Shown here piece after piece: positions 1 through 59,387 of a stretch of 64,000 bases of DNA. This DNA is from an uncultured bacterium. GTDB taxonomy: Bacteria > CG03 > SLGR01 > JAGXOG01. Both the position numbers and the translations under genes were made by a program. Where the stretch lies: positions 491 to 64,490 of the forward strand of contig CAYZAK010000004.1 of assembly GCA_964476445.1 (NCBI GenBank), in the 5' to 3' direction. The notes under the pieces are model-generated. The model did no database searches, was not told the DNA's origin, and saw nothing but the letters and a program-made list of their open reading frames with translations. Within the stretch, counting starts at the first letter, position 1, and each line of letters begins with the position of its first letter.

Positions 1-112
1 CCTGAAAGGAAAAAGGACTGCGCAAGCAGTTCATTCTAAGGAATTTGTTAGGGCGGTTAAAGAATATTCAAAGTTTTCAATATCCTATTATCCTCCTATT
101 TCAAAAGATAAT

Positions 113-1084
113 ATGGAAAAAAACTTTTCAAATAAAACGAAAAAGATTTTTTTAATACCCGGTAAAATTAAAAAGTTTTTAATAAATAAAAGAGAATGGA
201 GAAAATTAAAAAAGGTTATAAAAAAAGAAAAACCTGATGTGATTATAGCCCGTCACAATTTCCTCTTTATTTCAGTTATTAAAAAACTGGTAAATATACC
301 GCTACCATTTATTCTTGAGGTTAACGGTTTGGTAGAATACAGCTTCAATTTCACCGGAAAAAAGAAACAAAAAAAACTTGTAAGTTTGGAAAATGAAATT
401 TTAGAAAAAAGTAATTTTATCTTTACTATTTCGGAAATTTTCAAGTCAGGAATTATCTCAAAGGGCTTCAATGAAAATAAAGTTGCTGTATTTCCCAATG
501 CTGTAGATGTTGAAAAATTTAATCCGTCAAACTGCGAAACGAAAGAAAACAAAAATGAGTTTATTATAGGTTACATTGGAAGTTCTATGCCTGGCAGAGA
601 TATAAAAACGCTTATTGAGGCATATAAGATTGTAAAAAAGAAGTTGCCGGATACCAGACTTGAGTTGATTGGAAATTTTAAAAGTAAATGTAATATTGAG
701 GGGGTTGTTTATAGAGGGACTATTGCTCATGATAATATTCCCAAAGAAATAAACCGAATGGATATAACTGTTGCCCCATATTTTAAAACCCATACCGATC
801 GCTGTTCACCCTTGAAGATACTTGAATATATGGCAATGGAAAAACCCGTAATTACAACTAAAGGAAAAATGGCGGAAAGTATTTTTTTGGATGAAACCGA
901 AAAACATATTTATATACCGGAAAACCCTAAATCTTTAGCTAATGTTATTATTAAAATTTATGAGAATGACGAGTTAAGAAAAGAAATGGGAGTTAAAGCA
1001 AGAGGAATAGTAATGAATAATTTTAACTACAAAAGATATATCACAAGATTGGATAAAATTTGTGAAGAAAATTTGATACGTTAA
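113..1084 (+). CDS. GT4-family (GT-B fold) glycosyltransferase
   Basis: C-terminal half carries the GT4 signature (EYMAMEKPVITTK, E-x7-E-like nucleotide-sugar binding region). ATG start at 113. First gene of the glycan locus. Confidence 0.65.
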   Translation: MEKNFSNKTKKIFLIPGKIKKFLINKREWRKLKKVIKKEKPDVIIARHNFLFISVIKKLVNIPLPFILEVNGLVEYSFNFTGKKKQKKLVSLENEILEKSNFIFTISEIFKSGIISKGFNENKVAVFPNAVDVEKFNPSNCETKENKNEFIIGYIGSSMPGRDIKTLIEAYKIVKKKLPDTRLELIGNFKSKCNIEGVVYRGTIAHDNIPKEINRMDITVAPYFKTHTDRCSPLKILEYMAMEKPVITTKGKMAESIFLDETEKHIYIPENPKSLANVIIKIYENDELRKEMGVKARGIVMNNFNYKRYITRLDKICEENLIR

Positions 1085-1100
1085 AGGATAAAAATAAAAA

Positions 1101-2063
1101 TTGAAAAATTTTAATTACGACAAATATCCTCTTCCACTGTATTTCTTTAAAATATCAAACTCTTTAAAACTGATAAGAAACTTCTTTTTTAACAGGCACC
1201 CTAACAGAAAAAAAACATCCAATCTCAGCTGCATTCCTTTTTTTATTATCGGCTCCGGCAGGTCCGGCAATACTCTTTTAAGAAGAATTCTGTGCCAGCA
1301 TGGGAAAATAGCCATTCCTCCCGAATCCTATGTTCTGGGCAGCGTAATTAAAAAATTTCAGTATATTAATTTTTTACCCTGGCAGGAGATAGTAAAAATA
1401 GTTCTCGGAGAATTCCAATCCCATGAGGAATTCTATACCTGGGAGATAAGCTTAGATAAAGTTTATAAAAAACTATTCAATATTGAAGATGACGAGCGTT
1501 GTCTGGCAAAAATTATAGATGAAATTTATCGCCATTATTCAAAAGTCAAATTCCCGGAGGCCGAACTATGGGGCGATAAGACTCCTATTAACACTCTGAA
1601 TCTTGGATGGATAAATAAGCTTTACAAAGACGCGAAGGTTATAAATATGGTAAGAGACGGCAGGGACGTTGTAAGCTCCTACCTTAAGATGGGGCGCTAT
1701 AAAACAGTTGAGGAAGCCTGCTTGAGATGGGATAAAAGTATAGAAATGGTAGATAAATTCGGTAATTATAAACCGGAAGAGGAATATATAGATATAAAAT
1801 ACGAGAATCTGGTCTCTTCTCCCCAGAAAGAAGTTAAAAAAATATGCGAATTCCTATCCATAGAATATGAAGTTGAAATGATAAAAAGCTGTCAAGAAGT
1901 TGAAAAGCTTGGGGATGTCACGGATAAGGACCACCACAGGAATGTTTTGGGAAAGATAAATACGGATTCAATTGGAAAATGGGAGAAAAATCTATCAGAG
2001 AAGCAAAAAGAAAAAACCAATAAACTGCTTGAAAATAATCTAAAAAAGTTAGGTTATATATAA
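1101..2063 (+). CDS. Sulfotransferase-family protein (PAPS-dependent)
   Basis: 5'-PSB-like P-loop IIGSGRSGNTLL near the N-terminus and 3'-PB motif RDGRDVVSS. The frame opens with TTG at 1101 and has no internal ATG before the P-loop, so the exact start is uncertain. Confidence 0.6.
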   Translation: MKNFNYDKYPLPLYFFKISNSLKLIRNFFFNRHPNRKKTSNLSCIPFFIIGSGRSGNTLLRRILCQHGKIAIPPESYVLGSVIKKFQYINFLPWQEIVKIVLGEFQSHEEFYTWEISLDKVYKKLFNIEDDERCLAKIIDEIYRHYSKVKFPEAELWGDKTPINTLNLGWINKLYKDAKVINMVRDGRDVVSSYLKMGRYKTVEEACLRWDKSIEMVDKFGNYKPEEEYIDIKYENLVSSPQKEVKKICEFLSIEYEVEMIKSCQEVEKLGDVTDKDHHRNVLGKINTDSIGKWEKNLSEKQKEKTNKLLENNLKKLGYI

Positions 2064-4219
2064 TGTCAATTTTGTTTATCACCCCGGATTTTCCTCCTAG
2101 GGGGGGAGGAATGTCAGAAAGGGCCCGCCAGCTTGTTGATATATGGCAAGATAAAGAAAAGGTAATAGTCCTTACCGATGTTAAAGGAAAAATTTCAGAT
2201 AAATATGAAAGAATTTATATCCCCCTGAAAGGCCATTACGTAAGAAAATCAATTAAACTTTCCAAAAAAATAAAAGAAATAGTAAAAGAAAGGTCTATTA
2301 CAAAAATTTTCTGTTTGAGCTGGTCTCCCCCGGCGATAGCTGTACTGCTGTCGGGTGCTTATAAAAAAAGAAAATGGGCCGTTACGGTAAACGGGTTTGA
2401 TATCATAGACGGGGTTAAAAATTTTAGAACCCGGTTTCTTTTAAAAAAAATATTTAAAAGGTGTAATAATATATTTTCCCCTTCACTTTACCTGAGGGAT
2501 AAAATATTAACTTTGGGAGATTTTTCAGATAAAATCAGCGCTATATCTAACGGGGTTCAGCTTGACAGGTTTAAAAATCCGGATAGAGCAGGCGTAAGAG
2601 AAAAATACAACCTCAAAGATAATACTGTTATTATGAGCCTCTGCCGGCTTCACCCCATAAAAGGAATAGATACACTTATTAAAAGCTTTACCGATCTTAA
2701 AAACGATTCGGATAAAATAAAATTATTAATTGCCGGTGACGGCCCCCAGAGAAAAGAACTTGAAAAGCTTGCTTCTGATGAGGGGGTTAGAGAAGAAGTA
2801 ATATTTACCGGCTGGATTAGGCAGGATGAGGTGGCGGATTATTATGCCGCCTGCGATATTTTTGCGCAGCCCAACAGGAAATACAAAGGTTTTGAAGAAG
2901 GCCAGGGCATTACTCTTATGGAAGCCTCGGCAGCCGGCAGGCCTGTAATATCAACAAGAACCGGGGGTATTGGGGAAGTTGTTGATGATAATGAAACAGG
3001 GTTTCTTGTTAAGCCGGAATCAGAGGAGGAACTGACCGGGCGAATAAAAAGACTTATTGAGAATCCCGGTTTAAGAGAAAAAATGGGGAAAAAGGGAAAA
3101 GAGAAGGCTTTAAAAGAGTTCGACGGTATAAAAAACGGTAAATTAATATACAGAGAATTATCTTCCCAAAGAGTTTTGTATATAGATGAACCCCTTGACC
3201 CACCCGGAGGAGGCCAGAAAAGCCTTAAGATTATAATAGACAATATTGATAAAGGGAAATTTACTCCTTTTCTTTTTGAAGCGGGAAAATATTCAAAGAA
3301 CAGGTATTTTTCCCTGTGGGAAAACCTGTCCGAATGTATAAACAAAACAGGGTGTAGTATAATTCACTGCAACGCCGGTACTTCAAAGGTCAGTTTTATC
3401 TCTGCCCTGCTGGCAAAATTAAAAGGAATTCATTTTATCTGGCACGCAAGGGTTTCGGAGTCATCAAAACTTAGAGAAAGAATAATAGGGAGATTGGCAG
3501 ATAAGATTATTATTATATCCGATTCGGTTGGGAAACGGTTTAAAAAGAAAAGTGTAAGAAAAAAAGTTGTTAAAATTTACAATGCCGTTGATACAGAAAA
3601 ATTTAAACCCGGAACTCCTTCAGAGGCATTATACAAGGAATTAAAAAGAGATAAAGATAAATTCAGTATAGGTATTTTTTCAAGGCTTGTGCCTATGAAG
3701 GGACACCGTCTCTTTCTTGATACAGCCTCAAAGTTAATAAAAGATGGATTTGCTTCATATTTTTTAATAGCCGGAGATGGTGAAGAAGAATATACGGCGG
3801 AACTGAAAAATTATGCAAAGTCTTTAAATCTGGAGGAAAGGGTGAGGTTTCTGGGTTACATAGATAATAGTGAAGAAATTATGAACGCCTGTGATATAAT
3901 TCTTCATACTTCGATAGAACCGGAAGCCTTCGGGAGGACTATTGTTGAAGCAATGGCCTGCGGCAAGCCTGTAGTTGCAACTGATTTGGGAGGCCCAGTT
4001 GAAATAATTGACTATGGTACAAACGGCTTTCTCTGTGAAGCTGATGCAGCGGCTATGGCTCAAAAAACAAAAAAAATTATAGATAATAAAGACTTGAGAA
4101 GAAATTTAAGTTTAAATGCCAGGGAAAAAGTTGTTAAAGAATTTTCAATACCAAATCATATCGAAAAAATTTGTAAATTATACGAAGAAGTTAAGAGTAA
4201 TAAAAAATATGGCCAATAA
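2063..4219 (+). CDS. Tandem fusion of two complete GT4 glycosyltransferase modules (718 aa)
   Basis: Two separate N-terminal GT-B halves (ITPDFPPRGGG... and IDEPLDPPGGGQKSL...). Two separate C-terminal GT4 motifs (EGQGITLMEASAAGRPVISTRTGGIGEVV and EAFGRTIVEAMACGKPVVATDLGGPVEII). TAATG overlap with the upstream gene. Confidence 0.75.
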   Translation: MSILFITPDFPPRGGGMSERARQLVDIWQDKEKVIVLTDVKGKISDKYERIYIPLKGHYVRKSIKLSKKIKEIVKERSITKIFCLSWSPPAIAVLLSGAYKKRKWAVTVNGFDIIDGVKNFRTRFLLKKIFKRCNNIFSPSLYLRDKILTLGDFSDKISAISNGVQLDRFKNPDRAGVREKYNLKDNTVIMSLCRLHPIKGIDTLIKSFTDLKNDSDKIKLLIAGDGPQRKELEKLASDEGVREEVIFTGWIRQDEVADYYAACDIFAQPNRKYKGFEEGQGITLMEASAAGRPVISTRTGGIGEVVDDNETGFLVKPESEEELTGRIKRLIENPGLREKMGKKGKEKALKEFDGIKNGKLIYRELSSQRVLYIDEPLDPPGGGQKSLKIIIDNIDKGKFTPFLFEAGKYSKNRYFSLWENLSECINKTGCSIIHCNAGTSKVSFISALLAKLKGIHFIWHARVSESSKLRERIIGRLADKIIIISDSVGKRFKKKSVRKKVVKIYNAVDTEKFKPGTPSEALYKELKRDKDKFSIGIFSRLVPMKGHRLFLDTASKLIKDGFASYFLIAGDGEEEYTAELKNYAKSLNLEERVRFLGYIDNSEEIMNACDIILHTSIEPEAFGRTIVEAMACGKPVVATDLGGPVEIIDYGTNGFLCEADAAAMAQKTKKIIDNKDLRRNLSLNAREKVVKEFSIPNHIEKICKLYEEVKSNKKYGQ

Positions 4220-5153
4220 TAAATCAAGAATTCTGATAATCAGAAACGACAGAATAGGGGACATGGTCCTTACCCTTTCTGCGATTACGGCCTTGCGGAA
4301 AGAATATCCGCAGAGCCGGCTTTATCTGCTCTGCTCCAAAAGTAACAGGGAAGTGGCTCAGCTTCTGCCTTTTGATATAGATTTGATTGAAGATAGGGGT
4401 TTTAAGGCAAATATAAAGAAACTTAAAAACCTTGAACTTGATATTGGAATCGATTTTGTAAATAACTGGCGGGGAACAAACGCTGTTCAGATGTTTCTGT
4501 CTAAGATTAAAAAAAGAGCGGGTTTCTACGGTCTATTGAACAGGGCTTTTCTTAATACCGGCTTAAAAGCTAAAAAAGATGTTTCTCTTTTAAAGCAAAG
4601 CTTTATGCTTCTGAAAAAATTAGGTATAAATAGAATTGAAAGATACAGGCAGGAGTTGAATATTCCGGATACGGATATCAAAGTTGATATTGTCGTTCAT
4701 CCGGGAGGATATTACCCTTCCCAGAAGTGGCCGGTAGAATATTATATAAATCTTATGGAAAAAATTAAAAATAAAACCAACAAAAGTTTTTGCGTAATAG
4801 GTGTCACCGGAGAAAAAGATATTATAGGTAAAATAAGAGAAAAATTTTCCAATCAAATATATCTTATAGATGAACCGATAAAAAAAATAGCTGCTGTAAT
4901 GAAAAAGGCAGAGCTGTTCATAGGAAATAATTCCGGCCCGCTTCACCTGGCTTCTATGATAGGAATAAAAACGGTATCATTTATTGGCCCAACAAATCCG
5001 GATGTATTTTATCCCCAGGGGGAAAACGACTATGTTTTTAGAGAGGAGTTAGATTGTATAGGATGCGGTCGTGGGGAATGCGGACATCATTCATGTATGA
5101 AAGAGATTACTCCGGATAAGGTGTGGGAAAAAATTCGAAAATTAATATTATGA
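4209..5153 (+). CDS. GT9-family glycosyltransferase (ADP-heptose:LPS heptosyltransferase-like)
   Basis: N-terminal RILIIRNDRIGDMVLTLSAITALRKEYPQSRLYLLC is the classic RfaF/WaaC/WaaQ start. The C-terminal GNNSGPLHLASMIG donor-binding motif is present. The track ORF opens at 4116 inside the previous gene. The in-frame ATG at 4209 (MANNKSRILII) is the likely true start. Confidence 0.7.
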   Translation: MANNKSRILIIRNDRIGDMVLTLSAITALRKEYPQSRLYLLCSKSNREVAQLLPFDIDLIEDRGFKANIKKLKNLELDIGIDFVNNWRGTNAVQMFLSKIKKRAGFYGLLNRAFLNTGLKAKKDVSLLKQSFMLLKKLGINRIERYRQELNIPDTDIKVDIVVHPGGYYPSQKWPVEYYINLMEKIKNKTNKSFCVIGVTGEKDIIGKIREKFSNQIYLIDEPIKKIAAVMKKAELFIGNNSGPLHLASMIGIKTVSFIGPTNPDVFYPQGENDYVFREELDCIGCGRGECGHHSCMKEITPDKVWEKIRKLIL

Positions 5154-6286
5154 AGACCCTGTTAATATCAAGCGATTATCCGCCTATGGTAAGCGGGATA
5201 GCAAATGCCTGTTATAATTTCTGGAAATATTTACCTTCCGAAAAAGTTGTTGTACTGGCTCCGAAAGTAGAGGGGTATGAAAAATATGATAAAGAAGCGG
5301 AGTTAAAAACTTACCGTTATTCGCCGGCGTTCACCGGCACATCTATAATTTCCAGGGTTTGCCGTTTTATGATGCTGTTAAAGAAAATTTTGAAAATAGT
5401 AAATAAAGAAGATATTAAATTACTTCATGCAGGGCAGCCGGTTTTAGTTGGATTTGTTGCCAGATTATTTGCAGGGTTATTTGATATTCCCTATGTAATT
5501 TATGTCTATGGCGGCGAAGTAAAAAAATTCGAGGGAAGCATATTTTTTAAGTTATTTGTAAAAAACATGAAAGAATCCCGGGCTGTTATAGTAAACAGTA
5601 ATTACACCGCTTCGGAGATAAGGCATTTAATTCCCGAAAAAGAAATAAAAACGGTTTATCCGGGAGTGGATACAAAAAAATTTGTGCCCCAAATTAATAC
5701 GGAGGAGTTGGAAGAAAAGTATAATGTAAAGAAAAAAACCGTTTTACTGACAGTTGCCCGATTGGTAAAAAGGAAAGGACAGCATCTTGTTTTAGAGGCC
5801 ATAGACAGGCTCAAGAAAGAATATCCGGATTTAGTATATCTTATTGTAGGAGAGGGTCCGCGACGGGAAACCCTGGAAGAATTGGCGGAGGCATACGGAT
5901 TAAAAGATAGAGTAATTTTTGCGGGGGAGGTAGATGAAGAGGAACTTCCAGTTCTCTATAATGTATGTGATATATTTATTATGTTAAGTACTCTTACCGA
6001 TAATGAGGAGGTAGTGGAAGGTTTCGGTATATCCTTTATGGAGGCTAACAGCTGCGGGAAGCCGGTAATAGGAGGAAAAACCGGTGGGGTTGTTGAGGCC
6101 GTCAAGGATGGCGAAACCGGTTTTCTGGTAGTTCCAGAAGATATAAATCAGGTGGTTGCCAAAACCAGAAGGTTTTTGGAAAATAAGAGCCTGCGAAAGA
6201 AATTTGGAAAAAAAGGTCGTCAAAGGGCGCAGAAAGAGTTTGACTGGAGAAAACTCAGCCGACAGTTTCTTGATTATATTGTCTGA
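5150..6286 (+). CDS. GT4-family glycosyltransferase
   Basis: EGFGISFMEANSCGKPVIGGKTGGVVE motif. ATG at 5150 overlaps the upstream stop (ATGA). An alternative in-frame ATG exists at 5123. Confidence 0.75.
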   Translation: MKTLLISSDYPPMVSGIANACYNFWKYLPSEKVVVLAPKVEGYEKYDKEAELKTYRYSPAFTGTSIISRVCRFMMLLKKILKIVNKEDIKLLHAGQPVLVGFVARLFAGLFDIPYVIYVYGGEVKKFEGSIFFKLFVKNMKESRAVIVNSNYTASEIRHLIPEKEIKTVYPGVDTKKFVPQINTEELEEKYNVKKKTVLLTVARLVKRKGQHLVLEAIDRLKKEYPDLVYLIVGEGPRRETLEELAEAYGLKDRVIFAGEVDEEELPVLYNVCDIFIMLSTLTDNEEVVEGFGISFMEANSCGKPVIGGKTGGVVEAVKDGETGFLVVPEDINQVVAKTRRFLENKSLRKKFGKKGRQRAQKEFDWRKLSRQFLDYIV

Positions 6287-6303
6287 ATGCGAGGAGGAGA
6301 ACA

Positions 6304-7134: not shown

Positions 7135-7142
7135 TAATTAAA

Positions 7143-7796
7143 TTGATACACAAACTCTATTCACGTTTCATAAAATTCTTCAGGCCTTCCGGGGAGAAGG
7201 ACAATCCTTCCTCCGGGCCTCTTTCGGGTAGGATCAGAAGATTGGCCCTGGGAGCTCTGGAAGATATTGAAGGGAAATTTTTGGATGTGGGGTGCGGTGA
7301 AGGATTGTTACTGGAAGATGTACTTGAACAAAATTCTGATCTTAAAATTTTCGGTATAGATATGGATACCGAACAGATAAAAAGATGCCGTTCAAAGATC
7401 GGGGTCCCTGCGGATGAGGTGAATTTGCTTACCGGAGATGCCGGTGAACTTCCTTTTAAAGATAATTTTTTTGACCTGGTTACGGCTATAAATATTTTTT
7501 ACAATCTTTCTGAAGATAAGATGACAAATATTATTAAAGAGATCAACAGGGTGTTAAAACCGGGGGGAATACTGGTGGCAGATTTTAGAAATAAAAATAA
7601 CTTTTTTCTAAGATTAAGATATCTGCTGGCCCCGGTATACGATAAAAGTTTCAGAAAGCAAGGAAAACTTTTAAAAGCGTATTCAAAAAAAGAAATGGAA
7701 AGTATTGTTAAAAAAACAGGTTTCCGGTTACGGGATATATATAAAACAGGTCGGATTATCACTTCTGCCCGGGTTACGGTTTTAGTAAAGAAGTAA
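7143..7796 (+). CDS. Class I SAM-dependent methyltransferase
   Basis: Motif I LDVGCGEGLL and post-I acidic D (FGIDMD). Motif II/III LKPGGILV. TTG start. No ATG upstream of motif I. Confidence 0.7.
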   Translation: MIHKLYSRFIKFFRPSGEKDNPSSGPLSGRIRRLALGALEDIEGKFLDVGCGEGLLLEDVLEQNSDLKIFGIDMDTEQIKRCRSKIGVPADEVNLLTGDAGELPFKDNFFDLVTAINIFYNLSEDKMTNIIKEINRVLKPGGILVADFRNKNNFFLRLRYLLAPVYDKSFRKQGKLLKAYSKKEMESIVKKTGFRLRDIYKTGRIITSARVTVLVKK

Positions 7797-7908
7797 ATTA
7801 AATTGGGCGGGGTAATTTGAACCCGTAAGTAAATCTGTTTATAATTAAAAATCAATATAAAACGGTAAAAAGGAAATTGGAAAAGAAAATTAAGCTTAAA
7901 AAAACTAA

Positions 7909-8709
7909 ATGTATTCAGAATACTGGGGACTAAAAGAAAAACCTTTTAAAAATACCCCCGATCCAAAATTTTTATATAGATCTGCACAGCATGAAGAGGC
8001 CCTGGCCCGGATGTCATATGTGGTTCAGGAAGGTATGGGCTGTATGGTAATGAGCGGGGTTTTCGGTTGCGGGAAAACTTTACTGCTTAACACTCTTACA
8101 GGGAAGTTAGCCGGGAGTAAATTTCATGTAGCCAGAATAAATAATCCCCAGCTGGATCCCTCCGGTCTGCTTCATTCTTTTATTTACCAGATGGGAATAA
8201 AAGATAAAATACCTTCTAAAAAAGCGCCGATGCTGAATCTTTTGGATAAGGCAATTGAAAATATATACAATGACGGCAAACATATTATTCTGATTGTGGA
8301 CGAAGCCCATGTTATAGGGGAAGTAGATGTTTTTGAGGAGTTAAGGATGCTACTTAACTGGCAGAAAAACGACCGGTATCTTTTGACTCTTATTCTTTCC
8401 GGTCAGCCGGAGCTGCTCAAGTCAATTTCCAATATAAAACAGCTGGCCCAGAGAGTGGGATTAAGAACGGAATTAGACCGGTTTGAGCTGGATGATACAG
8501 TTAAATATATAAATCACCGGCTGGATATTGTTGGAGCCGGTGATCCTATTTTTTCGGATAAGGCTCACCGGGAGATATATGATAACTCGGGGGGAATACC
8601 CAGGCGGATAAATACAATATGCGATTTGAGTCTGCTTACCGGATATATACGTAAAAAAAACTTTATCGGGGAGGATTTGATAAAAGAGACCATCGGGGAC
8701 TTGATTTGA
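7909..8709 (+). CDS. ExeA/GspA-like AAA ATPase (AAA_22-type), of the kind found in EPS/PEP-CTERM-type loci
   Basis: N-terminus MYSEYWGLKEKPF..PDPKFLY resembles the ExeA start. Walker A GVFGCGKTLL. Walker B ILIVDEAH. Confidence 0.6.
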   Translation: MYSEYWGLKEKPFKNTPDPKFLYRSAQHEEALARMSYVVQEGMGCMVMSGVFGCGKTLLLNTLTGKLAGSKFHVARINNPQLDPSGLLHSFIYQMGIKDKIPSKKAPMLNLLDKAIENIYNDGKHIILIVDEAHVIGEVDVFEELRMLLNWQKNDRYLLTLILSGQPELLKSISNIKQLAQRVGLRTELDRFELDDTVKYINHRLDIVGAGDPIFSDKAHREIYDNSGGIPRRINTICDLSLLTGYIRKKNFIGEDLIKETIGDLI

Positions 8710-8739
8710 GGCGATCTGTAAAAAAGAGCTGGTAATTAT

Positions 8740-9885
8740 ATGAAAACTCTTGTTCCCATATCCGGTACTCAATATTCTCCTCTGGAAATATTTTCTAAAC
8801 CGGATCTCGTTGAAATTTTAAAAGAAATACTGGGTAGAAAAAATTGTCTGCTTTACGGTTCCGGCGCTCAGGCACTTTATGTGGCTTTTAAAATTCTGAG
8901 TAAAATAACTAAAAAGGAAGAAGTTATAATACCCGCCTATACGGCAGATGCTGTATATGTAGCCGCTAAGGAGGCCGGATTCAGGGTTAAACTATGCGAT
9001 ATATCCCTGGATAGTTTTAATATGGATCTTGAGTACTTGAAGATGATTGTGAACGAAAAAACAGCTGCAGTTGTGGCTGTTCATCTTTTCGGTATTCCGG
9101 AAAATATGGACCGCGTATTTACAATAATAAAGGATTATTCGGGGCTGGTTATAGAGGATGCAGCTCAGGCTCTGGGAAGTTCGTATTCCGGGCGGTTGGC
9201 TGGGAGTGCAGGAGATATGGCAATTTTTTCTTTTAATAAGGGAAAAAATCTTCCCGCTTTAAACGGTGGAGCTTTACTGTTTGATAAAAAAGCGATGGCG
9301 GTGGAATCGCAAAAATTTCTCAAAAACAACAGTACCGGTTTTATAAAAGAGATTAAATCAGTATTAAAAGCCGGCGGTGTTTCTTTTTTTAGTCGTCCGG
9401 AGCTCTATGGTTCTTTGTACAACCGGTTATCTAAATTCCGAAAAGTTTCCGCAAAAAGGAGCATTGAACCCGGACCTATGCCCGTATCAAATAAAAGGCT
9501 GGCCAGTTCTTTACTTAAAAGAAGGGAAGAAATTTTTAAATCGAGAAGGGAAACGGGTATTAAACTGCTGGAAGGTTTAAAAGGAGTAAAAGATTTAAGA
9601 GTTCCCCGGATAAGCCCGAACAGCAATACCGTATTTAACAGAGTTCCGGTAATAATAAAAAACTTAAAAAAGAAAAGAGAAATAAAAAAATTACTAATGG
9701 AAAGCGGAATAGAAGCTAACTACTATTATAACAATCCTTTCTATTTTAACCGGGAGAAAATACCTGAAAAGGCGATTTATTTTAGTAAGCATTTGTTAAC
9801 TATTCCTTCCAATGAATTTATGAGTGAAGAAAACATAAAAGAAGTTATTGATATTTTTAGAAAGGTTTTAGATGTTTCCGGTTAA
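8740..9885 (+). CDS. DegT/DnrJ/EryC1/StrS-family PLP-dependent sugar aminotransferase
   Basis: DAAQALGS and FSFNKGKNL (PLP-lysine context) motifs. About 380 aa, typical of the family. Confidence 0.75.
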   Translation: MKTLVPISGTQYSPLEIFSKPDLVEILKEILGRKNCLLYGSGAQALYVAFKILSKITKKEEVIIPAYTADAVYVAAKEAGFRVKLCDISLDSFNMDLEYLKMIVNEKTAAVVAVHLFGIPENMDRVFTIIKDYSGLVIEDAAQALGSSYSGRLAGSAGDMAIFSFNKGKNLPALNGGALLFDKKAMAVESQKFLKNNSTGFIKEIKSVLKAGGVSFFSRPELYGSLYNRLSKFRKVSAKRSIEPGPMPVSNKRLASSLLKRREEIFKSRRETGIKLLEGLKGVKDLRVPRISPNSNTVFNRVPVIIKNLKKKREIKKLLMESGIEANYYYNNPFYFNREKIPEKAIYFSKHLLTIPSNEFMSEENIKEVIDIFRKVLDVSG

Positions 9886-11011
9886 GAATTTTAAAAGAAA
9901 TATATATAAATTTTTCCGCCAGCCTTTTTATGGGATGAAAGTTTTTTTAAAAAGGGTAAAAGCTGCTCTTTACTATAAACTGGGCCGGGGTCAGGCTCCT
10001 TTACCCGAAGCCGTTACTCTGTTTCTTACCCGCAGATGCAATCTTAAATGCAAAATGTGTGGTCAGTGGGGGGACCAGGGAGTTACCAAAAAAGGCAATA
10101 AAATTCAGCCGGATATGCCTCTGAAAAAATTAAGAGAAGTTATTTTGACTCTGGCTGAATTTAGACCTTCGATAACATTGTTCGGTGGAGAGCCTCTTCT
10201 TTATACTGAAATAGAAGAAATAATAAAATTGATAAAAAGAAACCAGCTGCACTGTGTAATGATAACCAATGGATATTTACTTGAAAAATATGCCCGGATT
10301 ATTACCAGTGAAGAGCTTGACGAACTAAATATATCTATTGATGGTCCAAAAAAAGTTCATGATAAGATAAGGGGAATCAACGGACTTTACAGTAAAATAG
10401 AAGAGGGAATTAAAGCGGTACATAACTTAAAAAAAGGGAAAAAACCGCTCATAAATTTGCAGACAACTATAACGAAATACAATATAAATGATATTGTGGA
10501 TATGCTGAATGTGGCTGAAGAGTTTAAAGCGGATTCTATAACTTTTCACCATCTTATATTTCTTGATAAAGAAGATATAAAAAATACGGAGGCACGGTTT
10601 CCTTCACTGGGCTGTAAAGACTGGGAGGGTTTTGTATTTAAACCCGGTATTGAACCGGGGAAATTGAGTGATATTATCGGGGAAATAAATGATAAAGCTA
10701 AAAACAGACCGTTTTCTGTTAATGTTTATCCGAATTTTAGTCCCAAAGAGATAGAACAATATTATCGGGACAGAAAATATTTTCCAAAATCTTACAGCGG
10801 CAGATGTAAATCTTCCTGGCTGTGCGCTTATGTGTTTCCGGACGGGGAACTAAGACCCTGTCTTAATTTCAAGTACAGTTTCGGTAATTTAAAAAACGAA
10901 AAATTTGAAGATGTCTGGAATTCCGAAAAGGCAGTTAAATTTAGAAAAATGCTTACTGATAATTGTCGATTTCCGGTCTGTTCGAGATGTACGGAGATTT
11001 TTAGATATTGA
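9872..11011 (+). CDS. Radical SAM enzyme with C-terminal SPASM-like cysteine cluster
   Basis: CNLKCKMCGQW (C-x3-C-x2-C). Glycine-rich SAM site LFGGEPLL. C-terminal CKSSWLC...C-x..CRFPVCSRC auxiliary Fe-S-like cysteines. Overlaps the upstream gene by 14 nt. Confidence 0.7.
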   Translation: MFPVKNFKRNIYKFFRQPFYGMKVFLKRVKAALYYKLGRGQAPLPEAVTLFLTRRCNLKCKMCGQWGDQGVTKKGNKIQPDMPLKKLREVILTLAEFRPSITLFGGEPLLYTEIEEIIKLIKRNQLHCVMITNGYLLEKYARIITSEELDELNISIDGPKKVHDKIRGINGLYSKIEEGIKAVHNLKKGKKPLINLQTTITKYNINDIVDMLNVAEEFKADSITFHHLIFLDKEDIKNTEARFPSLGCKDWEGFVFKPGIEPGKLSDIIGEINDKAKNRPFSVNVYPNFSPKEIEQYYRDRKYFPKSYSGRCKSSWLCAYVFPDGELRPCLNFKYSFGNLKNEKFEDVWNSEKAVKFRKMLTDNCRFPVCSRCTEIFRY

Positions 11012-12120
11012 AAGTTTTACATATTATAACCAGGCTGGATCCGGGAGGTTCCAGCGATATGTGTCTGAAAATTTCGGGGATGCTCCAAAAAAAGAAAGTG
11101 AAAAGTTACGTGGCTTCCGGACCGACTCAAGCCCGGGTGAACGATAATATTATTTCTCTTAGATTTTTGAAGAGAGAAATCTCTCTATTTTGGGATTGTC
11201 TCGCCGTTGCTGAGATTTTTTTTTTATGCCTCCGGTTAAAACCGGATATACTTCACCTGCATACTTCTAAAGCCGGATTCGCCGGCCGGATGGGGGGCTT
11301 TATGGCCGGGGTAAAAAAAATATTTTATCAACCTCACGGTATAGTATTTTACGGATATTTTTCACGGCTAAAAAGCAAGATTGTGCTGTCGGCGGAAAAA
11401 TTACTGGCCCCTCTGGCAGAAAAAATAATTGTATTGACTCCCAATGCTAAAAGAGAATTTCTCTCTTATGGAGTAGGAAAAGAAAAGCAGTTTCGGATAC
11501 TTGAAAACGGGATATGTCCGGAAAACTTTAACAGAGATAAAAAACTCAAAAATCAATTAAGAAAAAAATTTCATATAAAAGAAGATGAACTGGTTTTCGG
11601 AATGGCCGGCCGGTTAGTGCCTCTTAAAGGCCACCGTTTTTTCATAAAAGTTTTTTCTAAACTGGTTAAAACCGGGTCAAAAACAAAAGCGGTTATAATA
11701 GGAGCCGGTCCCGAAGACCCCGGACTTAAAAAAGTAGTTGAAAAATACGGGCTTAAAGATAAAGTTATATTTACCGGTTACCGAAAAGATATGGAAAAAG
11801 CGATACAGCTAATGGATGTACTAATACAACCTTCTTTGGTTGAAGGTTTCGGGCTCACTTTAATAGAAGCGGGAGCTGCCGGGATACCGGCAGTAGGGTT
11901 TAAAGTGGGGGGAATAAGGGATATAATTAAAAATATGTATAATGGTATTTTAGTGGATTGCAAGGATATTAAAGGTATTTACAAAGCAATGCAATATTTT
12001 ATTGATAATCCAGCAAAGGTAGAAGATATGGGCAAAAATGCCAAAAAAAGGGTTCAAAAACATTATACTCTGGATAACATGCAAAAAAAACTGTACAGAA
12101 TTTACGGGTTAACAACATGA
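11008..12120 (+). CDS. GT4-family glycosyltransferase
   Basis: EGFGLTLIEAGAAGIPAVGFKVGGIRDII motif. TTG start overlapping the upstream TGA. Confidence 0.75.
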   Translation: MKVLHIITRLDPGGSSDMCLKISGMLQKKKVKSYVASGPTQARVNDNIISLRFLKREISLFWDCLAVAEIFFLCLRLKPDILHLHTSKAGFAGRMGGFMAGVKKIFYQPHGIVFYGYFSRLKSKIVLSAEKLLAPLAEKIIVLTPNAKREFLSYGVGKEKQFRILENGICPENFNRDKKLKNQLRKKFHIKEDELVFGMAGRLVPLKGHRFFIKVFSKLVKTGSKTKAVIIGAGPEDPGLKKVVEKYGLKDKVIFTGYRKDMEKAIQLMDVLIQPSLVEGFGLTLIEAGAAGIPAVGFKVGGIRDIIKNMYNGILVDCKDIKGIYKAMQYFIDNPAKVEDMGKNAKKRVQKHYTLDNMQKKLYRIYGLTT

Positions 12121-12785
12121 GGCTGGGAATACATCAACCTCAGTATATGCCCTGGTTGGGATATCTGGATAAGATAAACAAATGCAAAAATTTTGTTTTT
12201 TTGGATGATGTACAGTACAAAAAACGGGAATTTCAAAACAGGAATCGGATAAAGACGCCCCAGGGAACCATGTGGCTTACCGTACCGGTAAGGGTAAAAG
12301 GACGATATTACCAGAATATAAATGAAGTGGTTATAAATAATAATACTAACTGGCAGAAAGAACATATAAAAGCTATACAACATAATTACAGCAGCTGCAG
12401 GTATTTTGAAAAATATTATCCTTTAATTAAAGAAATTGTAATGAAAGATTGGGAAATGCTCTGGGCACTTAATATGGAAGTTATAAAATTTTTTATGAAA
12501 ATTTTTAAGATTAATCCCCCGTACGTAATGAGTTCGGATATGGATATTAGAACCACTAAGACCCGGAGGCTGGTGGATATGTGTAAAAAACTTAATGCCG
12601 ATGAATATCTCAGCGGGACAGGGGCCAAAGATTATATGAAAGAAAATCTTTTTAGAAAATCCGGGATAAAACTTTCTTATCAAAAATTTAAACATCCCGA
12701 ATATTCCCAGAATTTTGAAGGATTTATCTCCCATCTCAGCGCTTTAGATTATCTTTTTAACTGCGGCCCGAATTTATTTAACTAA
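12117..12785 (+). CDS. WbqC-like family protein (O-antigen/glycan cluster protein of unknown function)
   Basis: N-terminus MRLGIHQPQYMPWLGYLDKI matches the WbqC family start (HQP.Y.PWLGY.DKI). ATGA overlap with the upstream gene. Confidence 0.6.
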   Translation: MRLGIHQPQYMPWLGYLDKINKCKNFVFLDDVQYKKREFQNRNRIKTPQGTMWLTVPVRVKGRYYQNINEVVINNNTNWQKEHIKAIQHNYSSCRYFEKYYPLIKEIVMKDWEMLWALNMEVIKFFMKIFKINPPYVMSSDMDIRTTKTRRLVDMCKKLNADEYLSGTGAKDYMKENLFRKSGIKLSYQKFKHPEYSQNFEGFISHLSALDYLFNCGPNLFN

Positions 12786-12920: not shown

Positions 12921-12997
12921 GGGCCGCTAGCTCAACCCGGCAGAGCAACGGACTCTTAATCCGTAGGTTCGGGGTTCGATTCCCCGGCGGCTCACCA
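12921..12997 (+). tRNA. tRNA-Lys (anticodon CTT), CCA encoded
   Basis: GGGCCGC acceptor stem. TAGCTCA D-loop. Anticodon stem ACGGA/TCCGT with loop CTCTTAA. GGTTCGATTCC T-arm. Terminal CTCACCA. Confidence 0.85.
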
Positions 12998-13046
12998 TTT
13001 AAAGTTAAATTAAAAATTTAGTTTAGGATAACGTAATTTTAAAAGT

Positions 13047-13131
13047 GTCGCGGTGGCGGAACTGGCAGACGCGCCAGGTTTAGGACCTGGTTCTTTTAGG
13101 AGTGCGAGTTCAAATCTCGCCCGCGACACCA
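13047..13131 (+). tRNA. tRNA-Leu (anticodon TAG), class II with long variable arm, CCA encoded
   Basis: GTCGCGG/CCGCGAC acceptor. Anticodon stem CCAGG/CCTGG with loop TTTAGGA. Long extra arm. GAGTTCAAATCTC T-arm. ACCA end. Confidence 0.85.
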
Positions 13132-33907: not shown

Positions 33908-33911
33908 TTTC

Positions 33912-34940: not shown

Positions 34941-34987
34941 ATGATATTATTTATTGAAAGGAAAAGGTTAAAAATAAGGAGAATATA

Positions 34988-48093: not shown

Positions 48094-48116
48094 ATAGCAT
48101 TGAAAGGAGAAAAGTA

Positions 48117-54516: not shown

Positions 54517-54532
54517 ACAGGAGGATAATTTT

Positions 54533-59384: not shown

Positions 59385-59387
59385 AAA

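Follow-up and report, generated by a model that had tools for sequence, protein, structure and literature searches.

The first 12,785 positions of the window (the whole stretch of DNA analyzed, 64,000 nucleotides) are a true sugar-polymer gene cluster, probably for an envelope glycan. This cluster is a mosaic, with a cassette shared by three phyla making up two thirds of it. The cassette occupies positions 4209–12785 without 6304–7134 and encodes a GT9 glycosyltransferase, a GT4 glycosyltransferase, a methyltransferase, an ExeA-like ATPase, a DegT aminotransferase, a radical SAM enzyme, a second GT4, and a WbqC family protein. Its gene order recurs in dozens of loci of Elusimicrobiota, Omnitrophota, and Nitrospirota, which is the main new point of this work. 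An interpretation made previously from the nucleotide sequence (the sequence-only reading) had regarded the locus as one bespoke assembly and the ATPase, radical SAM, DegT, WbqC, methyltransferase, and GT9 proteins as independent decorations. Both views had to be given up, as the locus is a mosaic and all six proteins are members of one cassette.

Pfam searches and the ORF list placed 13 closely packed ORFs in positions 1–12785, all on the + strand. Every family named in the sequence-only reading was found in its place, with Pfam scores far above chance. The genes are co-directional, as it had claimed; its count of twelve was too low, and its description of them as overlap-coupled applies to 6 of the 12 junctions, where the overlap is 1–14 nt (2063, 4209–4219, 5150–5153, 9872–9885, 11008–11011, and 12117–12120). 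The other junctions are gaps of 8–30 nt, except for a single 112-nt gap at 7797–7908. This only long gap contains a promoter-like element, TTGAAC-17-TATAAT (7817–7845, + strand; 10/12 matches in a consensus scan), a possible internal promoter, for which the consensus match is by itself weak evidence. The first GT4 gene (1–1084) is truncated by the window edge, with the ATG at 113 being internal and the frame open from base 2. The complete gene encodes 373 amino acids, of which the window holds the C-terminal 361, and starts 38 nt before the window (positions 3021–4142 of locus L002, to which the window sequence is identical from L002 position 3059). For the GT9 and third GT4 genes, the starts at 4209 and 5150 are likelier than those at 4116 and 5123 and agree with the gene calls of the source contig. 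Upstream of the window, the locus runs on for at least 3 kb in both the source contig and another assembly, encoding LicD, a 261-aa methyltransferase, and a 404-aa GT4, so that the predicted upstream continuation proved right. The full cluster spans at least 15.8 kb, of which positions 1–12785 make up the downstream four fifths; it lies on one strand and is partly translationally coupled. The downstream edge is marked by tRNA-Lys(CTT) and tRNA-Leu(TAG) genes (12921–13131, + strand), followed by tig-clpP-clpX-lon.

The conservation of the cassette was counted in 80 metagenome loci found with a radical SAM profile, in 44 of which the radical SAM protein shares at least 44% identity with that of the window. 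Among informative loci, 27 of 31 have the DegT gene immediately before the radical SAM gene, and 28 of 29 have a GT4 gene downstream of it. The methyltransferase gene precedes DegT in 20/24 informative related loci, GT9 lies upstream of the methyltransferase-DegT-radical SAM genes in 12/16, and WbqC is present in 18/22. The ATPase is an optional member: 5 of the 12 informative loci hold a copy of it, with 43–48% identity, within the cassette. Elsewhere, the cassette usually closes with genes for a PIG-L-family deacetylase and a WecA/MraY-family HexNAc-1-phosphate transferase (each in 11 of 12 informative loci from the 44), and in one relative a Wzx gene lies within the cassette operon. Copies were found in Elusimicrobiota MAGs (L024 and L114), Omnitrophota (L025), and Nitrospiraceae (L026), with that of L114 being complete, including the PIG-L and WecA-like genes. 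The order in L024 equals that of the window (methyltransferase-ATPase-DegT-radical SAM-GT4-WbqC-tig-clpP-clpX-lon-serA), with proteins 59–82% identical (ATPase, 82%) and the same tRNA/housekeeping boundary. The PIG-L and WecA-like genes are missing from this locus and also from L024, its closest relative; used as tblastn queries together with a 489-aa membrane protein of related loci, they gave no match in the window. The closest organism-named homologues of the radical SAM protein are labelled Elusimicrobiota (72%, then 55–57% identity). The locus belongs to an uncultured member of the Elusimicrobiota that is probably anaerobic and diderm; the diderm look is based on an encoded PorV-like outer-membrane protein.

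The signature gene of the cassette is that of the radical SAM enzyme (9872–11011, 379 aa; PF04055 81.6 bits, SPASM PF13186 48.7 bits), which has a twitch-like single-cluster C-terminal domain. In the alignment of its homologues (mean column identity 66%), the CX3CX2C cysteines C56/C60/C63 are invariant, as are C128, C312, C330, C370, and C373; the C-terminal domain carries four invariant cysteines with the spacing Cx17C...Cx2C. The only PDB sequence matching this domain is BtrN; the match, in which three cysteines align, is weak (E = 4e-4 over 56 residues). A fold search with the AF2 model (pLDDT 90) gave SuiB, SkfB, BlsE, MoaA, anSME, viperin, and DesII as top matches at TM ~0.6, without singling out BtrN, and no NCBIfam model was matched at its cut-off. 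The DegT/DnrJ/EryC1-type PLP sugar aminotransferase (8740–9885, 381 aa; PF01041 159.6 bits) retains the SFnxGKN..GG motif, including the PLP lysine, as do 48 cassette homologues. The other members are a class I SAM methyltransferase (7143–7796, 217 aa; Methyltransf_11 77.8 bits), the ExeA/GspA-like P-loop ATPase (7909–8709, 266 aa; AAA_22 65 bits), and the WbqC family protein, encoded by the last gene of the locus (12117–12785, 222 aa; PF08889 268 bits). Four plasmid clusters, from Bacillus, Mariluticola, Desulfolutivibrio, and Streptomyces, were also examined, and each encodes WbqC together with a DegT-family aminotransferase.

The rest of the cluster is a lineage-specific, low-GC arm. Genes for the sulfotransferase, LicD, and the CDP-alcohol-transferase-like protein had no match in 83 cassette-sharing loci. 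The GC content is 25–30% from LicD to the first GT4 (29%; Glycos_transf_1 65.8 bits), 35% in the sulfotransferase gene, and 41% in the rest of the window. The sulfotransferase gene (1101–2063, TTG start) encodes 320 amino acids matching Sulfotransfer_3 (PF13469 110 bits; PF00685 56 bits). The protein aligns to the CurM sulfotransferase (4gbm) and TPST and carries the 5'-PSB motif GSGRSGNTLLR, the glutamate of IPPESY, and the 3'-PB motif RDGRDVvSSY, all conserved at 95% or more across 118 homologues. Judged from these motifs, it is a genuine PAPS-type sulfotransferase, as previously proposed, and not a kinase. Sulfation of the glycan is plausible at this locus. Against the pathway proposed below, neither a PAPS-synthesis gene nor a cytidylyltransferase gene is visible. 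The rarity of bacterial glycan sulfation had been overstated, as 805 homologues were found at E ≤ 1e-5. Halanaerobacter, Methanococcoides, Oceanobacillus, Salinibacter, Ca. Mcinerneyibacterium, and numerous marine contigs supplied the nearest (50–58% identity). In each of the three homologue contexts looked up, the sulfotransferase lies beside GT4 genes in a Wzx-type polysaccharide locus. The sulfotransferase shares 55–57% identity with homologues whose adjoining GT4 genes share only 22–31%. Sulfation is thus less exotic than first claimed, because halophilic bacteria and one archaeon carry the orthogroup in polysaccharide loci of the Wzx type. Sulfotransferases within polysaccharide clusters have published precedents (PMC8205485, PMC7356697), among them Pontiella, with an experimentally sulfated exopolymer and a PF13469 sulfotransferase in a glycosyltransferase/methyltransferase/transaminase cluster (PMC7356697).

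The gene at 6304–7134 is a lineage-specific insertion into the cassette and encodes the sole multi-span protein of the locus (276 aa). This CDP-alcohol phosphotransferase-like integral membrane protein matches PF01066 (CDP-OH_P_transf) with 29.1 bits (cut-off 22) and aligns to AF2299 (4o6m). The family assignment made previously was upheld; what had been missed is that the motif DxxDGxxAR..GxxxDxxxH has His in place of the family's fourth Asp, and its chemistry may therefore differ. An exhaustive search yielded 1439 relatives, the best 39% identical. D83, D86, G87, and G106 are invariant in the alignment, and A90, R91, D110, and H114 are conserved at 90% or more. By these features, the protein is a member of a divergent subfamily, 36 of 40 members of which match PF01066. 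Distant relatives occur in Wzx/Wzy or phosphoglycosyl-transferase loci beside donor-activating genes (a TarI/IspD-type cytidylyltransferase and an SDR in one relative, a PEP mutase-nucleotidyltransferase fusion in another).

From the observed family assignments, catalytic motifs, synteny, conservation statistics, and GC contrast, we infer a pathway that includes a lipid carrier, an order of reactions, a role for the radical SAM enzyme, and a sulfate acceptor. There is about an even chance that the locus is a mosaic cluster for a polyprenyl-linked envelope glycan, which combines a radical-SAM/DegT amino sugar with a lineage-specific sulfate/phospho-alcohol arm. The cassette enzymes would build an oligosaccharide on polyprenyl phosphate at the cytoplasmic membrane face. 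By analogy to BtrN, the radical SAM enzyme would turn a sugar hydroxyl into a ketone, which DegT would transaminate to give an amino sugar, and WbqC and the methyltransferase would, in their putative roles, tailor the amine or its neighborhood. No NAD-dependent sugar oxidoreductase (SDR, GFO/IDH/MocA, or UDP-sugar dehydrogenase) was found in any annotated cassette copy; alternatively, enzymes encoded outside the locus could provide DegT with its keto-sugar. The low-GC arm, which starts upstream of the window, reaches 4219, and also takes in the inserted gene, comprises LicD, a methyltransferase, two GT4, the sulfotransferase, a GT4-GT4 fusion, and the CDP-alcohol-transferase-like protein. It would add further hexoses and anionic substituents, with PAPS as the sulfate donor and a CDP-activated alcohol as the source of a phospho-alcohol. 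The previously proposed product, a sulfated, amino-sugar-containing, phospho-alcohol- and methyl-substituted glycan, stands as a prediction from sequence. It would be destined for an O-antigen-like chain, a capsule, or a glycoprotein. Carrier and destination are extrapolated from relatives because the 67-kb contig lacks genes for a priming transferase, a flippase, a polymerase, and an exporter. Consistent with the sequence-only reading, Wzx, Wzy, Wza, Wzc, and a priming transferase were absent among window ORFs of at least 150 aa, and no match to a characterised O-antigen cluster was found.

In a doubtful but real alternative, the glycan is the same but its keto-sugar is not made by the radical SAM enzyme, which would instead act after DegT, as DesII deaminates/deoxygenates the product of DesI, or as an epimerase, C-methylase, or decarboxylase on a sugar nucleotide. 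DesII, viperin, and the sugar-nucleoside decarboxylase BlsE scored in the fold search equally to dehydrogenase-type enzymes, BlsE was also matched in a profile search, and DegT scores 90 bits against the DesI model. However, every annotated cassette lacks the 4,6-dehydratase that a route of the DesI/DesII type requires, and by sequence the C-terminal cluster domain matches BtrN only. It is unlikely that the locus serves the LPS core or a lipo-oligosaccharide, with GT9 and GT4 extending lipid A-Kdo at the inner membrane face, MsbA flipping the product, and LicD, the sulfotransferase, and the CDP-alcohol-transferase-like protein decorating the core. GT9 enzymes classically act on lipid A-Kdo and not on polyprenyl carriers, which speaks against the polyprenyl-linked glycan, and two GT9 genes are typical of related loci. 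LicD decorates Haemophilus LOS with phosphocholine, all glycosyltransferases here have the GT-B fold and are soluble or peripheral, the host looks diderm, and such a pathway would not need the Wzx, Wzy, and priming transferase that locus and contig lack. Nevertheless, GT9 is below every heptosyltransferase equivalog cut-off, and its surroundings lack genes for a Kdo transferase, for lipid A, and for ADP-heptose. Furthermore, the WecA/MraY-family transferase that closes the cassette of relatives primes polyprenyl-linked, not lipid-A-linked, assembly, and the Wzx gene of one relative is in the same operon.

An exopolysaccharide locus of the PEP-CTERM/exosortase type is very improbable. An ExeA-like ATPase with stp-like GT4 enzymes is a hallmark of XrtA-associated EPS operons, and the best NCBIfam match of the ATPase, over its full length, is the XrtA/PEP-CTERM system-associated ATPase TIGR03015, while stp2 and stp3 are the best matches of two GT4 enzymes. 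None of the three scores comes near its curated cut-off (212 vs 324.5, 147 vs 409, and 97 vs 442 bits), the scanned ORFs include no exosortase and the 64-kb window no PEP-CTERM motif protein, and the ATPase is optional in a cassette that has a WecA-type primer. Equally hard to credit is a cluster for a diffusible aminoglycoside-like pseudo-oligosaccharide, in which DegT, the twitch radical SAM enzyme, GT4, and PIG-L would correspond one to one to BtrS, BtrN, BtrM, and BtrD of the butirosin/paromamine pathway. BtrN is the sole PDB match of the C-terminal domain, DegT also matches 2-deoxy-scyllo-inosose aminotransferases, and WbqC-DegT-PIG-L sets occur with an MFS exporter in Bacillus plasmid clusters. 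However, 2-deoxy-scyllo-inosose synthase, inositol-phosphate synthase, exporter, and resistance genes are absent, the locus has six GT4 modules and a GT9, and across three phyla the cassette is conserved next to housekeeping genes and coupled to a membrane primer of the WecA type.

The five GT4 modules claimed for the window were confirmed, one each at 113–1084, 5150–6286, and 11008–12120 and two at 2063–4219. The GT9 protein (4209–5153, 314 aa; PF01075 51.9 bits), encoded by the first cassette gene, belongs to the family stated, but its label as LPS inner-core-type was not established (82.7 bits against the heptosyltransferase II model TIGR02195, cut-off 134.6). The third GT4 (378 aa; Glycos_transf_1 170 bits) has homologues of 37–42% identity adjoining the methyltransferase gene upstream in L035, L036, L087–L090, L092, and L102, and the last GT4 (370 aa; 145.8 bits) is a cassette member. 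The GT4-GT4 fusion (718 aa) contains two Glycos_transf_1 stretches with 277 bits in total. Fused glycosyltransferases of 658–697 aa, only 23–35% identical to it, occupy its position in several related loci, and that of L025 is a GT2-GT4 fusion.

The glycan locus opens the window, where 13 co-directional ORFs on the + strand fill base 2 to 12785 with near-zero non-coding DNA and the window edge cuts the first gene. The sequence-only reading had counted twelve genes here, and some of the gene starts that it assumed also had to be moved. All protein families that it named were recovered, each with a Pfam score above the curated cut-off. In the order of transcription, Pfam assigned a GT4 (113-1084; the gene truly begins upstream of the window and encodes 373 aa), a sulfotransferase of the Sulfotransfer_3 family (1101-2063), a 718-aa fusion of two GT4 modules (2063-4219), a GT9 (4209-5153; PF01075), a GT4 (5150-6286), a CDP-OH_P_transf protein (6304-7134), a class I methyltransferase (7143-7796), an ExeA-like AAA_22 ATPase (7909-8709), a DegT aminotransferase (8740-9885), a radical SAM protein with a SPASM match (9872-11011), a further GT4 (11008-12120), and WbqC (12117-12785). 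Neighboring genes overlap by 1-14 nt at six junctions, and a promoter-like TTGAAC-17-TATAAT sits in the sole long gap (112 nt), 5' of the ATPase gene. Downstream, the locus is bordered by tRNA-Lys and tRNA-Leu, followed by tig-clpP-clpX-lon-serA.

The sulfotransferase sequence was also found on the ENA contig ERZ27266011:k141_575824 (67,396 bp; L001), which starts 2,548 bp before the window. The Logan contig SRR9330141_7596 (L002) carries the same locus and extends 510 bp beyond the ENA contig, and both contigs are identical to the window across the shared part. They place a LicD-family gene (253 aa), a methyltransferase gene (261 aa), a GT4 gene (404 aa), and then the start of the first GT4 gene 5' of the window, which bears out the earlier guess that the locus continues upstream. 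The locus is at least 15.8 kb long, a lower bound given that both assemblies stop within 0.65 kb of the LicD start. LicD was also used to scan metagenomes for a further upstream extension, which gave no match. When the two contigs were compared, 44 differences were found in 175 bp of LicD (L002 534-709), at the start of the ENA contig, and both contigs break nearby. They may reflect microdiversity among strains at this variable end, or they may be an artefact of the assembly ends.

No flippase, polymerase, exporter, or priming transferase was detected among the scanned window ORFs of at least 150 aa. The absence of a polymerase and a flippase had already been noted from the sequence; the priming transferase, Wzx, and Wzy that together define a Wzx/Wzy locus are also absent from the window plus 3 kb upstream. 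Among the relatives of the cassette described below, a WecA-like primer was present in 11 of 12 and Wzx in one.

The GC content is 25-30% in LicD, the 261-aa methyltransferase gene, and the two upstream GT4 genes, 35% in the sulfotransferase gene, 34-41% in the cassette (4209-12785 without 6304-7134), and 41% in the window past 13 kb. This contrast agrees with a mosaic locus, in which a variable arm (the genes from upstream of the window to 4219 and the inserted 6304-7134) adjoins the cassette. The closest organism-named homologues of the radical SAM protein are from Elusimicrobiota (72% and 55-57% identity), and the Elusimicrobiota MAG locus L024 has the same order methyltransferase-ATPase-DegT-radical SAM-GT4-WbqC-tig-clpP-clpX-lon-serA, with protein identities of 59-82%. 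Because of these labels and this synteny, the host is very probably an Elusimicrobiota bacterium. A genome-contig scan of GTDB representatives with the 718-aa GT4-GT4 fusion returned generic GT4 relatives only (local identity at most 47%) and no close genome. The remaining genes of the window, which encode histidine biosynthesis, sensor kinases, a KaiC homologue, large surface proteins, a PorV-like outer-membrane protein, and an Rnf complex, fit an anaerobic diderm host.

The cassette recurs in other phyla. Its order is GT9-GT9-methyltransferase-DegT-radical SAM-GT4-(489-aa membrane protein)-WbqC-PIG-L-Glycos_transf_4 in the Omnitrophota locus L025, Wzx-...-GT4x4-methyltransferase-DegT-radical SAM-GT4-WbqC-PIG-L-Glycos_transf_4 in the Nitrospiraceae locus L026, and GT9-methyltransferase-DegT-...-radical SAM-GT4-WbqC-PIG-L-Glycos_transf_4 in L114, from a second Elusimicrobiota MAG. 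A metagenome scan with the radical SAM profile added 80 further loci, in which ORFs were called and assigned by blastp against the window proteins. Counting was confined to the 44 of these 80 loci whose radical SAM protein shares 44% identity or more with that of the window, with the informative loci as denominators. On this basis, the downstream GT4 was present in 28/29, the upstream DegT in 27/31, the methyltransferase in 20/24, and WbqC in 18/22 loci, followed by GT9 (12/16), PIG-L (11/12), the WecA-like transferase (11/12), and the ExeA-like ATPase (5/12). None of the 83 related loci gave a match to the sulfotransferase, LicD, or the CDP-alcohol-transferase-like gene. Neither the 64-kb window nor L024, its closest relative, contains PIG-L, the WecA-like gene, or the 489-aa protein. 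No NCBIfam model is specific to the methyltransferase-DegT-twitch radical SAM-GT4-WbqC(-PIG-L-WecA) cassette, and no description of this multi-phylum arrangement was found in the literature searched.

An IS200/Y1_Tnp-like gene of ~400 aa lies directly 3' of the WecA-like gene in L025 (16833-18065) and in L062, another of the loci (17364-18569). A 211-aa copy lies within the cassette of L114 (11014-11649).

The radical SAM protein belongs to a family of more than 1,000 homologues of 380-386 aa that share ~50% identity over the full length; the mean column identity was 66% in 31 sequences. No NCBIfam model attained its cut-off with this protein. The cysteines of the CX3CX2C motif (C56, C60, and C63) are invariant, as are C312-x17-C330 and C370-x2-C373 in the C-terminal part (PF13186, 48.7 bits). 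Measured against the cysteine counts that distinguish twitch from SPASM domains, the four invariant C-terminal cysteines indicate a twitch-like, probably single-cluster domain rather than a full seven-cysteine SPASM domain. The only PDB sequence match of the cluster domain was BtrN, and this match is weak (E = 4e-4), with three of the four cysteines inside the aligned stretch. In butirosin synthesis, the radical SAM dehydrogenase BtrN supplies the substrate of BtrS, an aminotransferase of the DegT type. The DegT of the locus, whose gene overlaps the radical SAM gene by 14 nt, scored 159.6 bits, and its PLP lysine in SFNKGKNL is conserved in 48 homologues. DegT-family aminotransferases require a keto-sugar, yet neither the window and its upstream genes nor the annotated cassette relatives encode an SDR, GFO/IDH/MocA, or UDP-sugar dehydrogenase. 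Since a keto-sugar is needed, no NAD-dependent oxidoreductase is encoded in these cassettes, and BtrN is the only PDB match, we tentatively propose, at somewhat less than an even chance, that the radical SAM enzyme oxidizes a sugar hydroxyl and that DegT aminates the resulting ketone. Searches for literature on SPASM with DegT and glycosyltransferases, or on Elusimicrobia LPS with radical SAM, returned nothing relevant.

Alternatively, the radical SAM enzyme would act later than DegT, in the manner of DesII, or would be an epimerase or a decarboxylase; we regard this as rather unlikely. A Foldseek search with the radical SAM model (pLDDT 90) returned SuiB, SkfB, BlsE, MoaA, anSME, viperin, and DesII at similar TM, so that peptide-modifying and sugar-modifying enzymes were not separated. 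The proposed oxidation before amination follows the logic of butirosin synthesis, where radical SAM oxidation feeds the transaminase without NAD. The likeness extends to the families of BtrS, BtrN, BtrM, and BtrD, namely DegT, twitch radical SAM dehydrogenase, GT4, and PIG-L/LmbE, the last of which occurs only in the relatives of the locus. It could be taken to mean that the genes form an aminoglycoside-like metabolite cluster, which is highly improbable: no 2-deoxy-scyllo-inosose (DOI) synthase domain was found in the window, the upstream genes, or the annotated relatives, exporter and resistance genes are lacking, and the cassette is conserved beside housekeeping genes. Unlike the butirosin genes, those of the locus form a multi-glycosyltransferase envelope-glycan operon with a WecA-type primer context. 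In addition, the radical SAM protein of the window has 379 aa with a conserved basic N-terminal extension, compared to ~270 aa for the PDB BtrN chains, and the similarity between the two is confined to the cluster domain.

The glycosyltransferases and the ATPase bear on two other interpretations of the locus. Like the LPS inner-core waa genes (WaaC/WaaF of GT9, WaaG of GT4), the locus combines GT9 and GT4 enzymes, and assembly at the cytoplasmic face requires no flippase or polymerase, so that an LPS-core locus might be envisaged. The sequence-only reading had pointed this way by calling the GT9 heptosyltransferase-like. The GT9 domain itself is clear (PF01075, 51.9 bits versus a cut-off of 22), but the best heptosyltransferase model, TIGR02195, reached 82.7 of the required 134.6 bits and no heptosyltransferase cut-off was attained. 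Furthermore, no Kdo, heptose, or lipid A gene was found in the window, and the cassette relatives carry a WecA-type primer and in one case Wzx, which together make an LPS core unlikely. An exopolysaccharide locus of the XrtA/PEP-CTERM (exosortase) type also places an ExeA/GspA-like ATPase amid GT4 genes (TIGR03015, stp1-3), and TIGR03015 was indeed the best match of the ATPase. This match scored 212 versus 324.5 bits, however, and those to stp2/stp3 scored 97-228 bits versus cut-offs of 409-442, all of them under the family cut-offs. With no exosortase in the scanned window ORFs and no PEP-CTERM pattern in any of the six frames, this assignment has very little probability. The ATPase had no PDB relative by sequence.

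WbqC was matched over its full length (PF08889, 268 bits). It had no PDB relative by sequence or profile, its single-sequence AF2 model reached a pLDDT of 33.6, and papers that mention WbqC gave no function for it. The name wbqC was given to a gene of an O-antigen cluster that encodes an N-acyl-amino sugar. In all four plasmid clusters examined, WbqC shares the cluster with a DegT-family aminotransferase; PIG-L is also present in two and a sulfotransferase in one. The gene orders are dehydrogenase-DegT-SDR-aminotransferase-GNAT-WbqC-PIG-L (Bacillus), pseB-pseC-pseF-PIG-L-pseG-...-WbqC (Mariluticola), DegT-methyltransferase-sulfotransferase-WbqC (Desulfolutivibrio), and radical SAM-SPASM-UGM-WbqC-DegT (Streptomyces). 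These shared clusters fit a role of WbqC in tailoring the amine that DegT would make. The radical SAM protein beside WbqC-DegT in Streptomyces was rejected as an orthologue of that of the window, as the two are 19% identical.

Two of these plasmid clusters deserve separate description. The Bacillus thuringiensis plasmid pKBT365 (L110; NZ_CP072692.1 212561-229217) encodes a nucleotide-sugar dehydrogenase, DegT, an SDR epimerase/dehydratase, a class V aminotransferase, GNAT, WbqC, PIG-L, a sugar-phosphate isomerase, and an MFS transporter. This compact type of cluster recurs, in 28 Bacillus cereus-group plasmids in all, and looks like an uncharacterized amino-sugar small-molecule pathway with a WbqC/PIG-L/DegT trio. 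The small plasmid p1 of Desulfolutivibrio sulfodismutans (L112; 5549-9687) encodes, in a run of four genes, a fused DegT (635 aa), a methyltransferase, a sulfotransferase, and WbqC, with a PAPS-reductase-family gene ~2 kb downstream. It is a second case of WbqC/DegT with a sulfotransferase, the latter unrelated to that of the window at E <= 1e-4.

The sulfotransferase of the variable arm scored 110 bits with PF13469 (cut-off 27) and 56 bits with PF00685 (cut-off 22), and could be aligned along its length with tyrosylprotein sulfotransferases (TPST2) and with the sulfotransferase domain of CurM. GSGRSGNTLLR (51-61) corresponds to the 5'-phosphosulfate loop, IPPESY (72-77) to the catalytic Glu region, and RDGRDVVSSY (185-194) to the 3'-phosphate motif, and the loops match those of CurM and TPST2. 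Except for one position each in the first and third motifs, the motif residues are at least 95% conserved in 118 homologues. The suspicion that this P-loop protein might be a kinase was thus dispelled by the PAPS motifs and the CurM/TPST alignment, and it is a genuine PAPS-type sulfotransferase.

The homologue search returned 805 proteins at E <= 1e-5. Those nearest to the window protein, with 50-58% identity, belong to Halanaerobacter jeridensis, Methanococcoides orientis, Oceanobacillus salinisoli, Alkalibacillus, Ca. Mcinerneyibacterium, and Salinibacter, besides many marine contigs. In all three homologue loci inspected, the sulfotransferase gene adjoins GT4 genes in a Wzx-type polysaccharide locus: Wza-Wzz-kinase-CpsB-primer-Wzx-sulfotransferase-GT4-sulfotransferase in Halanaerobacter, a JGI contig with cysD and cysNC-type PAPS genes, Wzx, three further sulfotransferases, and GT4 genes, and an archaeal contig with Wzx and GT4 genes. 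This context gives good support to a glycan as the predicted sulfate acceptor. The sulfotransferases of these loci are 55-57% identical, whereas the neighboring GT4s share only 22-31% identity and are non-orthologous; therefore, the sulfotransferase gene moves singly between glycan loci. A mobile two-gene module of sulfotransferase and GT4 was rejected on the same identities. That halophilic bacteria and an archaeon share the orthogroup suggests that the decoration is mobile and linked to habitat.

The argument that glycan sulfation is rare in bacteria, made in the sequence-only reading, is dated. Sulfotransferases have been described inside the cyanobacterial synechan polysaccharide cluster, and sulfated polysaccharides are mostly made by cyanobacteria of saline habitats (PMC8205485). 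The anaerobe Pontiella has a PF13469 sulfotransferase within a glycosyltransferase/methyltransferase/transaminase cluster and a measurable sulfated exopolymer (PMC7356697). Like the synechan (xss) cluster of Synechocystis PCC 6803, the present locus unites many glycosyltransferases with sulfotransferase genes, XssA and XssE in the former (PMC8205485). Unlike the present locus, where none was found in 67 kb, xss has its own Wzx, Wzy, and PCP, and its product is chemically defined (PMC8205485). The present locus has one sulfotransferase, of a different orthogroup, and in addition the radical SAM/DegT/WbqC cassette, GT9, LicD, and the CDP-alcohol-transferase-like protein. The putative sulfated glycosaminoglycan cluster of Pontiella sulfatireligans F21 resembles it in uniting GT4/GT2 enzymes and a methyltransferase with a sulfotransferase of PF13469 and a transaminase of the DegT type (VioA). 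It differs in having a flippase-like TuaB, YfhO, GtrA, and an NAD-dependent dehydratase (Gmd), and in lacking radical SAM, WbqC, GT9, LicD, and the ExeA-like ATPase (PMC7356697).

The CDP-alcohol-transferase-like protein is the only integral membrane protein of the locus, with at least five hydrophobic segments. PF01066 matched its N-terminal part only (29.1 bits versus a cut-off of 22). A word-based homologue search gave two weak matches; an exhaustive search gave 1,439 relatives, three of them below 1e-30 (one being the same protein with a shorter gene call) and the best at 39% identity. In a 40-member alignment, 36 of whose members match PF01066, D83, D86, G87, and G106 never vary, while A90, R91, D110, and H114 reach a conservation of 90% or more. 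The resulting subfamily motif is DxxDGxxAR...GxxxDxxxH, with His in place of the canonical fourth Asp. The protein thus has D83, D86, G87, A90, R91, G106, and D110 of the full motif D1xxD2GxxAR...GxxxD3xxxD4, and H114 at the fourth position, which is why we call it CDP-alcohol-transferase-like and not a strict member of the family. The profile score and the membrane spans agree with the original call of a CDP-alcohol phosphatidyltransferase-like membrane protein; the complete four-Asp motif is absent. The locus points to a distinct DxxxH subfamily in glycan loci, for which no description was found in the literature searched; a search on CDP-alcohol phosphatidyltransferases in polysaccharide clusters found nothing relevant.

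No cytidylyltransferase is encoded in the window or the 3 kb upstream. Distant relatives of the protein were found in glycan loci that contain a donor-activating enzyme. One of them (L109) encodes Wzz, Wzx, an IspD/TarI-like cytidylyltransferase, an SDR, two paralogues of the protein, and Wzy; another (L023) encodes a primer transferase, GT4, a PEP-mutase-nucleotidyltransferase fusion, and phosphonopyruvate decarboxylase. Because of these neighbors, a reasonable reading would be that the protein transfers a phospho- or phosphono-alcohol to the glycan or a lipid carrier, with a CDP/CMP-activated compound as the donor. At the 5' end of the locus, the LicD model was matched by the N-terminal 40 residues of the LicD-family protein only (45.5 bits). 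As in LicD systems (Haemophilus LOS, pneumococcal teichoic acids), a LicD-family gene is present, here with a second enzyme in the same operon that probably uses a CDP/CMP-activated donor; unlike in those systems, no licA/B/C, tarI/J, or pntC donor genes are visible. LicD-like genes also occur in phosphonoglycan loci (PMC6697681).

These results can be combined into a putative pathway for a polyprenyl-linked envelope glycan. In the full cassette, the terminal WecA/MraY-family transferase would prime polyprenyl phosphate with HexNAc-1-phosphate. PIG-L-family enzymes de-N-acetylate GlcNAc conjugates, and GT4/GT9 enzymes extend chains at the cytoplasmic face; by extension, the GT4 and GT9 enzymes of the cassette would lengthen the chain on that side, and its PIG-L would remove the N-acetyl group. 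The radical SAM enzyme would then convert a sugar hydroxyl to a ketone, DegT the ketone to an amine, and WbqC would tailor this amine. From the variable arm would come sugars (through its three or four GT4 modules), methyl groups, and sulfate, as well as phospho-alcohol added by LicD and the CDP-alcohol-transferase-like protein. Polysaccharide loci that combine glycosyltransferases and a sulfotransferase with an aminotransferase and methyltransferases are already known, and the decorated glycan predicted from the sequence is reasonable. The further proposal is that the cassette may constitute an undescribed oxygen- and NAD-independent amino-sugar route in a conserved envelope glycan of Elusimicrobiota, Omnitrophota, and Nitrospirota, with a BtrN-like radical SAM enzyme in place of the usual SDR-type oxidoreductase and WbqC as the missing N-tailoring enzyme, the product here being also sulfated and phospho-alcohol substituted through genes horizontally acquired from saline-habitat microbes. 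Taken as a whole, this is possible, if on the doubtful side.

If true, several large, mostly uncultured phyla would share an envelope-glycan pathway with a radical SAM key step. To our knowledge, accounts of radical SAM chemistry on sugars come mainly from antibiotic pathways (BtrN, DesII), and not from the synthesis of cell-surface glycans. The orphan WbqC family would gain a concrete, testable role beside DegT, and Elusimicrobiota would join the organisms predicted to make sulfated surface glycans. The combination of the cassette, the DxxxH subfamily, and a halophile-type sulfotransferase in Elusimicrobiota was not found described in the literature searched. It extends known polysaccharide-locus logic without overturning current ideas and supplies candidates for enzymology.

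Several features were observed elsewhere in the window. The stretch 32462-37136 encodes a KaiC-centered signaling module in a putative non-phototrophic anaerobe, in which a homologue of KaiC with two KaiC domains (384 bits) precedes a PAS histidine kinase, a hybrid response-regulator/GAF kinase, and a response regulator of the MerR-HTH type; an 890-aa MASE3-PAS kinase is encoded upstream of it (29454-32126). A 1,359-aa Kelch-repeat protein (37129-41208) follows. The tandem at 44527-49349 consists of a CHASE2 adenylate/guanylate cyclase, a FecR-domain protein, and a 410-aa protein without a Pfam match that has a beta-barrel-like C-terminus ending in ...NWQY. At 49456-55480, a 1,686-aa surface protein (CarboxypepD_reg, C-terminal FlgD_ig-like) is directly followed by the PorV-like outer-membrane protein (27.8 bits, barely above the cut-off), a pair that hints at T9SS-like cargo handling in an Elusimicrobiota genome. 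The Rnf genes encode RnfC-like (56443-57705) and FMN_bind RnfG-like (57702-58223) proteins, two Rnf-Nqr membrane subunits (58204-59384), and an RnfB-like Fe-S protein (59388-60185). Because no RnfD ORF was listed between RnfC and RnfG at the length limit of 150 aa (window 56443-60185), this could be an incomplete complex or one whose RnfD gene lies at another place. All real-looking ORFs of at least 150 aa in window 1-64000 are on the + strand, and the cumulative GC skew climbs monotonically over the 64 kb; therefore, the window lies wholly on one replichore with extreme gene strand bias. The GC maxima at 38-40 kb (0.47) and 50-52 kb (0.51) fall within the two giant surface-protein genes.
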